From Octopus sinensis (lineage: Eukaryota): DNA of 64,000 nucleotides. This document shows, in pieces, positions 31,685 to 44,012 of this stretch. A program made the position numbers and the translations under genes. How positions within the stretch are numbered: the stretch's first letter is position 1; each line of letters starts with the position of its first letter. The stretch is from positions 23,002,001 through 23,066,000 of the forward strand of contig NC_043016.1 of assembly GCF_006345805.1 (NCBI RefSeq), read 5' to 3'. A model generated the notes under the pieces. That model did not search any database and had not been told where the DNA came from. It saw only the letters and a list, made by a program, of their open reading frames with translations.

Positions 31685-31777
31685 TTAGAGAGGAACATGG
31701 CTGAATAAATAGGAGACAGACTCGCCATTGTGTGTCCGCCTGATGGCTTCGGCAAGCATCATTGATATATCAATACA
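31685..31777 (-). CDS. PRPS1: PRPS terminal exon 7b, distal alternative ([30 protein letters not shown])
   Basis: tttttcag acceptor, phase 0, 93 nt ending in TAA; intact and the same length as 7a. No second copy of exons 1-6 was seen between 7a and 7b. Confidence 0.92.
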
Positions 31778-32088
31778 CTGAAAAATAAAAATAATTAAAA
31801 ATATTGAGACAGAGAGAATACAGAAAAGATGTCAGAAACAAATGATAATGTATAAACTTTACGATCTTAATTAAAAAGAAACCTGACTGGGATACAAATA
31901 GAACTTAGAAAGCAGATATACCAGACATTTACCATCTTCTATGAGTATGTATGCGATTTTCTTTAATCTTCAACATAAGGTTAATTATTTATCTCCAAGT
32001 TAGTCCCGTTTGAGCAAAGCTACTCAGTATTTTCTATTTTCTTTTTAAGCATGGTGCACCCAGACATTATTCAGGGTCCTTGCTTTAA

Positions 32089-32296
32089 CCCTTTAGCAAT
32101 TCTAAACCAGTCATACCATGCCAAAATATTCAACCCGTTTTATGTTCAAACCAACCAGATCCAGCCTCTCATATCTCCCTTACAATTTCATTCTAAAAAA
32201 TAAATCACATCATTGGAATTTTGAAGCTACAAGACCAATTTGTAATTAATCCAAAACAATGTGAATAAATAAACAAGTAATCCGAATGCTAAAGTG
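32089..32296. mobile_element. piggyBac-type MITE; other copies at 40031-40242, 48719-48924, about 24870-25080, 26340-26510 and 51760-51890
   Basis: TTAA|CCCTTTAG...CTAAAGGG|TTAA termini and a shared ttattcacattgttttgaattaatc core. Confidence 0.8.
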
Positions 32297-34708
32297 TTAA
32301 TCTTTTTGTTACGATATTCCTTGTTGAGTGGGACACAATTTCAAAATTTAGTTGCTGTTCCTTTGGACAACATGATTACATATTGACTCCCAAGTCCAGA
32401 ATCGTTACGCTCAATCACATGAGATTCACCAACACCTACTCTCTACTATCCACAATGAATCAGATCACAACATACGCAATGAAGATGATATATTTCCAAA
32501 CAACATTTTAATTTAAATCAATTTAAATTTTATTCACAATAAATTTTCTCAAAAATATTCATATATAAATTACTTTTAATGAATTAAAATAGAGAAAAAT
32601 TGAATGAATTAAAATCCTTTAATGAAGAGAATTCAATATTTATGTCAACAAGTTTAAGTTAACTCCAGATCAAAATCCTAAACTTTACTACTATTTAATA
32701 ATCTAGGATGGCATCATCAGTGCTTTGCCTGTAGTGTTGGACAATTTTAAAATATAGGAAACAATTTTATTAGCATGACTATCTTCCCTTCTTTAATCAA
32801 CCAAACCCCACAAGTGATGCTTACAAGCATCACTTCTGAATTTGTCCTAGGGTTCCAGTCATCTGGGAGCCAACATATTAAGGGATCATACATAGCAACC
32901 ATCTCTTATGTATACAAACATGACTAAATATTTCAGTACACATGATAAGCATTTGTAGACTCTTAATATGCTTTCATGTGCTGCAAAGATTGGAAGTATG
33001 TATTTTAGTGCCTCACAAACCTAACCAATAAGCAAGACAATTATCAAATTTCATTGAAAATATAAAACAAAATGGAAGTGTCTCTACTGAAGAGGTAATT
33101 TAGCTTTTATTATGTAGTCTTAATTTGGCTAAAACTTCTGACAAACCAAATGGAATTGTTAGATAATCACTTGTCTCTATAAAATTATGAACCCTAATAG
33201 CAGGTAATGAAGCCTTTTTATGTTCCATGTAGCAGCTAAACCTCTTTCAGCAAATACCATACTGTCTATGAAATGACAGACCAATCACATCAGCTAGGTA
33301 TGGTGCCATGAAGCCATAAACCTTAGGACATTTCTTTTTTGTTATGTCAAAAACATTGGATAAATACAATTTGTATTTACATCTCTAGGATATTCCATCT
33401 GTTGATTGTGCTTTGTTGAGGTTGTTATTGGGGGAAGGAACAGGCAACTGCTTCAGAGACAAAGAAAGCTATATTTTTGCTCATAAATATAAACTTTATC
33501 CTAGAGATCATAGCAATTTAAACAAAGATATAAAAAAAAATTACAATTTGTACAAGTGACATTGGAAATTATTTTACTTTAAAAACTGAAATAGAGAAAA
33601 GCATATATATATATATGTGTGTGTGTAAATAAAAAAATAAAGTGCTTGTATTTAGCAAACATTCTGCTCTGTTAGTAAATATTAAATGACTTTTTGAAAT
33701 ATTTAGAAATGCAATTGTGTCAATTGAAGCAGCAATACTGAAAATTTTGAATAGAAATCAAAAAGACAATGAGTCTACAAAATGGATTTTATTGATTAAA
33801 AATTGAGGGAAAGGCACCAAGAGAGAGAAAGAAAAAGGGGGAAAATCATCAAAATACATGTTGACTTTAGAGCTCTAGAAGGAAGGGTCAACCTGTACCC
33901 TTTGACATCAAACTGATTTCTTGGACAAGAAACATTATTACTGATTCTCCTGTAACAGATATTATTTTGTTAGCACTTTCATAATTTAGGTAGGTACCAT
34001 GTTCATGGTTTGTAAATCTCTCCCCCCAATACCAATATAATAAAACATTACATGCATGGCAATATTTAAATATATGAGAGTCACAAATTTAATGACTAAC
34101 AATGTAAGCCTACACAAAAACTGAAGGACCAAAGTACTGCATATAACATTACTGTCACAGAAAGCTTTTAATTACCAGTTCAATTAAATGGTTAATGCTC
34201 CCCAGATGCCATGTCAGTTTAAAATCTGAATTATATGCTGGCTTTCACACCAGATAAAAGTAATAAATATGTACAACTCCCACTCATAACAGAATGGAGA
34301 TTATACTTGAAACCCTCAACATTAACTCTTACAATATCATGATTATATATAATCAATATTTTTATGTGTCCAGGAAACCTTTTTTGAGTAGCAGGCTCCA
34401 TGAATCATGGATTATCATCAGGTGGGCTACACTACTACAAAAAATGATAAATTTTTCATGAGGTTTGCCATTCAGAAAATCCCATGACTGGTTTAAACAA
34501 AACTTCCTGACATGGATTTTCTATCATTTTTCTTGTCACTAGTCAGTATCTGATTTTCAAATAAAGTACTACCATTTCACTAGTTCATACATATTGAAAG
34601 TGAAGCTCAAACTACAGGACTACTTTACTAGAGAATGTAAAAAATAACTTTACTCATGAAGTTGGTTCCTGATAACAATGATATTCACACACACACATAT
34701 ATATATAT

Positions 34709-41590: not shown

Positions 41591-43678
41591 TATCTATTTT
41601 TTTTGTAAAAATTACAATTGATAAATAATTTATAAATATTTTAAAATAGGGTGTTACTTTTCAATCACCCTGTAAACACAAACACACACAATAAAATCAG
41701 TGACAGCGAGTGTGCATAGTTAACATGTACAAAGACAATTTTAGCAGAGATGACACAGATTCTGGTTTCTAGATAGATAAAATTAGCTCATACACAGTTG
41801 AGGGCTAACTTGTCATATCCAGATATCTAGTTGTTTTGTAAAGTCATTTTAAAGATATCCATAAACCAAACACATAAAAGTAGTCAATGACCCATAAAGT
41901 TCTATATTGCAGAAATCTTAACCGAGACAAAACTGCAGCTTAAATAGCATTGTTACTTCAGTGTGTCAAAAACTGGAACTAAGAACTTTTCTGTGCAAGT
42001 AACAAAACTTAACCTTATTTTAGAAAGAACTTTCCACTTGCACCATGTTTGTTTATTTATTGTTTTATCAAATAAATTTCTCTGACCATTTTCTCCCTCT
42101 AATCTTTAAGTTAAAAGGTATCTAATACTTTAGGATGTAAATTAGAATTCAGAGTCATTATTTATTACTTATTAATAATTAGGAAATCAATGCCCAGGAA
42201 TTGATATCTTGTAAATATAAGTGGAAACACTTGTGTAATCAATCTAACTGTATTCAATCTACCTTGGCAGATGAAAGGACATAACAAATAAAAGCCAGTC
42301 ACAATGTACACCAACGATCATTCTGTCGTTTCAACAATTTCATCCAGATTCATGCAATTGTTATATTATGATTCTTTTTATAGACTAACTGCTTTATATC
42401 AGAATCTCTAGTTTCTAAGAGGATCAAGAAAGATTTATATAGACAAAAATCCTAAAATAAAACTAGTCAAGATTGACCCTATTACTTAGCCCAAAGAAAG
42501 GGAATATTGAGATATTGGTGAAATGAAATTTCAAACAAAATAATAAAAAAATTCTTTAAAAAAAAATCACCTTTTTACCACAATTTGAAGAGATAAGAGG
42601 CTTTTAATGCTCATGTCTACAAAGAAATATTACCAATCAAATATTGCCCAATTTATAAACATGGATGGGATAGAAAATGCATATTTAATAGATATGTATG
42701 AATATATATGAGGGTCATTTATTTTCAAAGAGCAACAATTGACTAGCACTCTAAAGAAGCCTAACAGCTTCTTGGAATTTATATCAAGAAAGAAAAAAGA
42801 AGCAGAAGCAGCATTTCCAATAATAATAAATACACACCCACAGACCAAATGTGAAAAAGAAACTTCTCAGATTTACTATTGCTTTGATAAACAAAAGCAT
42901 TGAAAAGAAAGAGGAAAAAGAAAATGAAGGAAAAACTAGCAAAAATACAAGAGAAAATAAAATAAGAAAAAGTATCCTGTTTTGCTCTAATTCTAATATT
43001 TTGCATAATGCTCAAAATATTCCAAGAATAAGACAGAATTAACAAAAGTTTTGAATTTTAAAACTGAAGCAAACAATGAGAGATTTGAATAAATTGTGCC
43101 ATATAATGATCAGAAATAATGTTAAGTGCCTGAAATTTCATTTAGAAACATTCCAAAATAGCCAATTTTGTTTTTCATAAATGGCAGATGCTGCATTACA
43201 AGAATTTAATAAAACATTCTGAAGGAGACTCTGGAAAAATTGATTGAAAATTAAATCTAAAAAAGCACTAAAAACTACTTGAAATGAATAGAAAATAATT
43301 ACATATACTTGGGTTTTCTATCCAGAAATTAAGAGATCTGAGCACTGAAGCAATATTTTACCTTGATATCCAATTAGAGAAGGTAATGATTTCATTAAAA
43401 GAAAAGGTAATGAATTCATCAAGAGGAAAAGAAAGCAACAGCAGCCTAACAAAGAAAATCAAGAGTAGGAAGATTCTAAGAATAATGGCATGCACATGCT
43501 TCTCTGTCAAGAATAGGAAAAAAAAAATTTTAATCTTGTGAATGAAAAGAAAAATTAAGCTAATCATATTCACTAAAATTATGGACCATAATCTTACAAT
43601 GACTTTATCAAGACAGAGTCAACCACACAAATAATATTGAGAGAAAAGGAGTGAAAACAAAACCCAATTTTTGTAAAT

Positions 43679-43684
43679 TTTATT
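43679..43684 (-). promoter_or_regulatory. Candidate polyadenylation signal for the exon-7a isoform
   Basis: AATAAA about 240 nt after the 7a stop, followed by a GT-rich tract (ttgggttttgttttc). Confidence 0.5.
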
Positions 43685-43919
43685 TAAAAAACTTCCCACC
43701 CCATAAAGTCTTTAGCAGTTTTAATCTGAAATTATGAAGAAAAAGCTAAAATATTTAGCTAAAGCATCATTTTTAGTTAAGTGCATAATTCATTTTCACA
43801 AATAACATGCAAATAATATATTTCAAACAAAATAACCATGCATGTTTTCTTTGAAGATATTCTTTGTTTCTTTTATAAGAACCTGCATTATAAAAGTGTC
43901 AATCAACTGGCAACAGCAT

Positions 43920-44012
43920 CTACATTGGCACATTGGAAAACAGGTAAGATACAGACTCTCCGTTGTGAGTACGCCGTACAGCCTCAGCTAAAATCATCGA
44001 TATATCAATACA
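43920..44012 (-). CDS. PRPS1: PRPS terminal exon 7a, proximal ([30 protein letters not shown])
   Basis: Pyrimidine tract plus cag acceptor, phase 0, 93 nt ending in TAG. Exons 1-7 sum to 957 nt = 318 aa plus stop. Confidence 0.95.

Follow-up and report, generated by a model that had tools for sequence, protein, structure and literature searches.

Gene Structure of the Octopus PRPS Locus

The subject of this report is a PRPS gene of Octopus sinensis that carries two homologous last exons. It lies in a stretch of 64,000 nucleotides (NCBI RefSeq assembly GCF_006345805.1, contig NC_043016.1, positions 23,002,001 to 23,066,000), hereafter the window, and all coordinates given here are window positions. 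The window holds a single PRPS gene, on the - strand, in which six shared coding exons are followed by either exon 7a or exon 7b. The proximal last exon 7a (43920..44012) is of the I295/V300 type, ends in SNVPM* and gives the product XP_036367631.1. It is preceded by a 645-nucleotide intron, its acceptor tract has pyrimidines at 25 of 25 positions, and a candidate poly(A) signal AATAAA is predicted 236 nucleotides past the stop (43679..43684). The distal last exon 7b (31685..31777) is of the M295/I300 type, ends in SHVPL* and gives the product XP_036367632.1. It lies 12,880 nucleotides beyond exon 6 and has pyrimidines at 18 of 25 positions of its acceptor tract. Its nearest candidate poly(A) signal is a predicted ATTAAA 299 nucleotides past the stop (31381..31386), and the first predicted AATAAA downstream is found at 30096. 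A preliminary description of this DNA had proposed two 93-nucleotide phase-0 exons with good acceptors and stop codons; these are borne out at the same positions, and a pyrimidine tract and TTTCAG precede both.

The shared coding exons, all on the - strand, are exon 1 (62299..62483), exon 2 (48968..49151; 184 nucleotides), exon 3 (46841..46939; 99 nucleotides), exon 4 (46467..46591; 125 nucleotides), exon 5 (45268..45441; 174 nucleotides) and exon 6 (44658..44817; 160 nucleotides), whose phase-0 donor is common to both last exons. Translation from the conserved ATG at 62420, which leaves 122 nucleotides of exon 1, gives a 318-amino-acid form. We take the sizes of the coding exons to be the same as in human PRPS1. 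Exons 1-6 joined to 7a or to 7b give a 318-amino-acid frame each, with no internal stops. The protein has the Pfam domains Pribosyltran_N and Pribosyltran/Pribosyl_synth, colinear with human PRPS1, and aligns without gaps over 318 amino acids to PDB 8dbc (E 3e-186), the source of the residue numbering used here. Judged by these domains and by its interface and allosteric residues, the predicted protein qualifies as a class I PRPS (PRPS1-like). An upstream in-frame ATG at 62483 would give a 339-amino-acid form with 21 extra residues (62483-62421, - strand); similar N-terminal extensions of 15-25 residues occur in many mollusc records. An acceptor near 62549 suggests an additional 5' exon.

Sequence Divergence and Selection

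Exons 7a and 7b are identical at 65 of 93 nucleotides. The codon tally of the preliminary description proved exact: 8 of the 30 codons are identical, 18 differ synonymously (including a TCC/AGC serine) and four replace the residue, the changes from 7a to 7b being I295M, V300I, N315H and M318L. Synonymous sites, earlier described as near saturation, are saturated, with a proportion of synonymous differences (pS) of 0.94 and differences at 10 of 11 four-fold sites. Recent gene conversion between the two exons is therefore rejected. Synonymous divergence (dS) is saturated and nonsynonymous divergence (dN) is far lower, about 0.12, which supports an old duplication and purifying selection on each copy. 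The 3' untranslated regions (UTRs) had been called unrelated, and the flanking introns and UTRs are indeed no more similar than shuffled sequences (p 0.74 and 0.37). Being homologous, in one gene and of equal length and phase, the pair fits the class of tandem exon duplications. With these divergences, and with such pairs in four mollusc classes, both copies have been kept over a long time.

One Locus With Two Annotated Products

Both products are already annotated in NCBI for three Octopus species, as automatic models. The O. sinensis isoforms X1 and X2 show no differences from the 7a and 7b translations, O. vulgaris has records of identical sequence, and X1 and X2 of O. bimaculoides differ from each other at the identical four sites. 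Independently of these models, among Logan contigs of 1.3-1.9 kb those encoding cephalopod-type proteins have open frames that run through exon 6 into either exon type (P0005 into the I type; P0127-P0129 and P0295 into the V type), which implies spliced messenger RNAs (mRNAs). Both Crassostrea isoforms are also present in Logan.

It is highly improbable that 7b was created by duplication in the assembly, is left over from a separate paralogue or represents a silent pseudo-exon. An exon 6-7b junction is listed for this organism in none of the contigs of four runs over 31610-32180, which speaks for an artefact or pseudo-exon. One of the four runs (X13, RNA by guess) has a contig over 31610-31744 and 7b is uncovered in the other three; these run-contig results, in which the repeat beside the acceptor was skipped, count neither for nor against expression. 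An origin of 7b as a haplotig or assembly duplicate is ruled out by the low nucleotide identity of the two exons and by their unrelated flanks. No second copy of exons 2-6 lies within the window. In a search of the whole genome (2.7 Gb) only 7a and 7b exceed 60% identity, with E values of 1e-12 and 7e-11, far beyond chance, and the other PRPS-like loci of the genome are 41-53% identical and all on other contigs. Exon 7b is therefore not the tail of a separate paralogue. A silent pseudo-exon is opposed by the 7b peptide, identical in O. bimaculoides and Argonauta records, and by the excess of dS over dN. The earlier proposal of one gene with two last exons, likely used as alternatives, is supported; the genome search finds no second gene body and both products are in NCBI.

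Some of the more distant loci deserve mention in their own right. Two scaffolds (G000:C8703, with locus L120, and G000:C8702) carry class I PRPS-like genes that are divergent (44-53% identical to the window protein) and have short introns; both scaffolds may come from a protist sequenced along with the octopus or from another contaminant. The PRPSAP-like loci comprise one with introns (L003 on G000:C27) and one that is apparently intronless, has frame changes and resembles a processed copy (L121/L004 on G000:C5). Within the window, intron 1 of the PRPS gene contains a remnant with a Pif1 helicase 2B domain (49313-49666, - strand; Pfam E 1e-10), likely part of a decayed Helitron-type element that reaches upstream to about 50230. 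Self-BLAST finds an array of tandemly repeated units of about 87 nucleotides and a long inverted repeat (10700-11850 and 8326-9105). An Rfam scan of the window gave no matches.

Distribution of Exon Pairs

Protein searches and cluster look-ups yielded 406 proteins, of which 320 have a last exon of the normal form. The counts that follow refer to this set of top hits, which is biased. Eighteen named species from four mollusc classes (chiton, cephalopod, bivalve and gastropod) have pairs in which the 110 residues ahead of the last exon match exactly and the last 30 contain 4-7 differences. They comprise three species of Octopus, the chiton Liolophura, the scallop Mizuhopecten, six oysters (Crassostrea gigas, C. 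angulata, C. virginica, Ostrea edulis and two Saccostrea), four species of Haliotis, Biomphalaria, Bradybaena and Pomacea (in two annotations). One Nucella model is a fusion of the beginnings of two such exons. The annelid Dimorphilus probably has a last-exon pair as well, judging from its protein P0173 and a further protein, P0077, which differ at 2 of 288 residues in the body versus 7 of 30 at the end (Fisher p 1e-6). One type only was found in Capitella and flatworms. Lineages with one type may reflect loss or sampling.

No pair turned up beyond the molluscs and the annelid named above, and none outside lophotrochozoans among first 259 and then 320 proteins of this top-hit sample; the comparison took in nematode tails that have an extra Cys in its last batch only. 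A metagenome scan for the exon motif found at least 115 loci, with wide flanks for 80; among the matches listed, none has two copies and none is a long mollusc contig. The insect-type loci L017, L051, L058 and L068 show one exon within 4.6-10 kb downstream.

What Differs Between the Two Endings

In 10 of the 10 pairs compared, one copy has Val at residue 300 where the other has Ile. The Ile copy has M295 versus I295 in the partner in 6 of 10 pairs (chiton, octopus, oyster, scallop and annelid), and not in gastropods. Residue 318 differs in 9 pairs and residue 315 in 5, with inconsistent directions. The contrast between SNVPM and SHVPL, which the preliminary description had put forward, is not a conserved distinction: in abalone the V copy ends in SHVPL and the I copy in SNVPM, the reverse of octopus. 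As read from these sequences, what the pairs have in common is the V300/I300 difference and, outside gastropods, also I295/M295. In a post hoc simulation, the probability of finding a site, among 13 variable ones, at which all 8 lineage-level pairs differ was P=0.012. At position 300, Aplysia has L300 and Patella caerulea has M300, and single-exon lineages carry V300 (insect-type) or I300 (vertebrate).

The last exon had been said to carry the filament interface and an allosteric segment, and published work supports this. Filament contacts are E298, R301, R302, N305 and E307, and the allosteric segment is 306-315 (bioRxiv 2022.06.27.496812); S308, S310 and F313 are allosteric residues (PMC10227994). 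Exons 7a and 7b share every one of these interface and allosteric residues. Residue 300 adjoins the filament contacts E298 and R301 and is predicted, from helical spacing, to face away from the filament surface.

A separate peculiarity lies in exon 5 (45441-45268), where residue 184 of the 318-amino-acid form is Trp in 12 of 12 cephalopod-type proteins and Arg in 299 of 327 proteins scored. The neighbouring D183 is a human superactivity and dimer-interface site (PMC9221600). Since Trp184 adjoins D183, coleoid PRPS might differ in feedback inhibition.

One Origin or Several

We consider it probable that this PRPS gene has two intact homologous last exons that are likely alternative, that likely stem from one tandem duplication predating the split of the mollusc classes, and that likely provide separately regulated 3' ends. 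The origin was examined with a free tree of 25 rows and 30 columns and with constrained searches on 23 rows, from which Ostrea was dropped as a near duplicate. In the constrained searches, the approximately unbiased (AU) test rejected a duplication per class (p 0.004) and per species (p 0.010); forcing both a V clade and an I clade was marginal (p 0.049). Fixed topologies were built on species relationships that we take to be correct. Among them the AU test gave 0.71 for one duplication before the annelid-mollusc split and 0.74 for the same with gastropods separate, as against 0.016 for separate mollusc and annelid events, 0.027 for events per class and 0.037 for events per species. One old duplication is thus weakly favoured by trees on 30 residues. 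Chitons, cephalopods and bivalves likely share it, and annelids probably do. The gastropod pair would be either inherited and partly converted, or re-made. The mollusc classes are of Cambrian age, and the two-version route is likely more than 500 million years old. A bilaterian-wide duplication in which insects kept 7a was dropped because no pair was found among insect-type tails, which carry a signature of their own (M295/F296/V300).

Several observations weigh against an old, shared and maintained pair. The trees rest on 30 columns, and the free tree groups all V copies with weak support (49/88). The Kishino-Hasegawa and Shimodaira-Hasegawa tests reject none of the fixed topologies. When residue 300 is dropped, separate duplications are no longer rejected (p 0.07-0.12), the all-inclusive topology, with gastropods, falls to p 0.015 and the topology with gastropods separate fits best. 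Only the V type was sampled in Mytilus and Gigantopelta, and only the I type in Dreissena, Mercenaria, Mactra, Ruditapes, Mya, unionids and Solemya; the pair may therefore be dispensable. The proximal and distal order of the exons is known from the octopus genome alone. In the locus L028 (1684-2112) an exon encoding the octopus 7b peptide (M295/I300) stands directly after exon 6, with no V copy within 822 nucleotides downstream, which argues against a fixed order. To these points are added the automatic nature of the NCBI isoforms and the absence of the exon 6-7b junction from the run contigs.

The results obtained without residue 300 also leave room for repeated independent duplications of the last exon, in each mollusc class and in annelids, each with a parallel I-to-V change at 300. 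Tandem exon duplication often occurs convergently (PMC9741552), insect-type sequences acquired V300 as well, and gastropods may represent a separate event or gene conversion (topology E). As single clades, neither the Octopus pair (p 0.083) nor the chiton pair (p 0.158) is rejected. Such a history nonetheless requires one copy to undergo the same change every time and, in chiton, octopus, bivalves and annelid, the I copy to carry M295 as well. It is further opposed by the AU values with all columns (0.004-0.037) and by the synonymous saturation of the Octopus copies, and we regard it as unlikely.

Proposed Mechanism and Purpose

Each last exon has its own stop and UTR, and therefore only one of them ends any given mRNA. 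Both have candidate poly(A) signals, and 7a is near and has the stronger acceptor tract; we therefore infer a choice by competition, with proximal splicing and cleavage on the one side and distal splicing on the other. Exon 6 would splice to the nearby 7a, followed by cleavage at the poly(A) site of 7a. If this splice and cleavage were bypassed, exon 6 would splice 12.9 kb downstream to 7b. For duplicated 3' exons, a route by alternative poly(A) use has been described (PMC8373072). The outcome would be two separately regulated 3' ends of one housekeeping gene, used in different tissues or states, with near-equivalent enzymes. This purpose is favoured because the two endings do not differ at any named interface or allosteric residue. 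The preliminary description had also raised mRNA localisation as a possible role. Any effect on the protein is likely subtle, and predicted only: a repacking of the helix that bears E298, R301 and R302 through V300/I300 and I295/M295.

A different purpose with the same origin is possible, though we find it the weaker case: a switch at the level of the protein. Subunits with V300/I295 and I300/M295 would then differ in filament stacking, phosphate activation or inhibition by adenosine diphosphate (ADP), with the UTRs secondary. The pair would act like vertebrate PRPS1/PRPS2, possibly in mixed hexamers. The retention of V/I300 in every pair compared speaks for such a switch, as does the position of the interface residues, the allosteric segment and S308, S310 and F313 within the exon (bioRxiv 2022.06.27.496812; PMC10227994). 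The diagnostic residues of PRPS1 and PRPS2, too, are important although they fall outside canonical functional regions (bioRxiv 2026.06.01.728777). Against this stand the identity of the named interface and allosteric residues, the conservative changes, the single-exon lineages that work with either residue, and the L300 and M300 variants. We think it rather doubtful that lophotrochozoans kept a duplication from before the mollusc-annelid split for more than 500 million years as a tissue-chosen V300/I300 switch that tunes filament or ADP sensitivity. If true, it would be a splice-level counterpart of vertebrate PRPS1/PRPS2, with two catalytic subunits and no second gene, the distal exon being, for example, neuronal.

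Relation to Known Systems and Significance

The closest known systems are C-terminal substitutions derived from tandem exon duplication, for example in GNAO1 (Martinez-Gomez et al., PMC8373072, PMC9741552). These likewise consist of ancient homologous 3' coding exons. They are chosen by alternative poly(A) use, and their changes are conservative with functional residues kept (PMC8373072). C-terminal events make up 77 of 236 human tandem exon duplications (PMC8373072). Ion channels and other membrane proteins are over-represented in that catalogue, whereas the present case is a core metabolic enzyme of lophotrochozoans. PRPS has no matches in the available main texts and supplements of the two papers.

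Vertebrate PRPS1 and PRPS2 resemble the octopus pair in supplying two near-identical catalytic class I subunits per cell lineage (Karki et al., PMC12238573). They arose by gene (segment) duplication in jawed vertebrates (PMC12238573), whereas octopus duplicates only the 30-residue last exon and UTR, with one promoter region. A further likeness is to the distal alternative last exons driven by ELAV/Hu in neurons, which share a proximal exon with a poly(A) signal and a far distal exon (Lee et al., PMC8055025). A U-rich stretch follows the 7a signal (47% T), yet the locus is U-rich generally (intron 6, 44% T). A neural ELAV-type bias toward the distal exon is at most suggested by analogy to that system (PMC8055025).

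Duplicated last exons are not mentioned in the available text of two papers on PRPS evolution (PMC12238573; bioRxiv 2026.06.01.728777), and six mollusc, annelid and brachiopod genus names have no match in ten supplementary files of PMC12238573. No description of the PRPS last-exon pair was found in the literature, with poor coverage of subscription journals. The feature is real; it is automatically annotated as isoforms and, as an ancient event, apparently undescribed. Tandem-duplicated C-terminal exons are a known type of event; the PRPS pairs across mollusc classes are the new part.

The event is older and wider than the preliminary description could tell. In octopus it offers a natural minimal protein pair, four residues apart within the filament and allosteric segment, that allows direct tests of helix packing and of the roles of alternative 3' UTRs. 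Surveys of PRPS evolution, as far as their available texts go, attribute isoform diversity to gene duplication, and the last-exon pair adds a second route. The pair is retained in a chokepoint enzyme of nucleotide synthesis, in four mollusc classes and probably in annelids.

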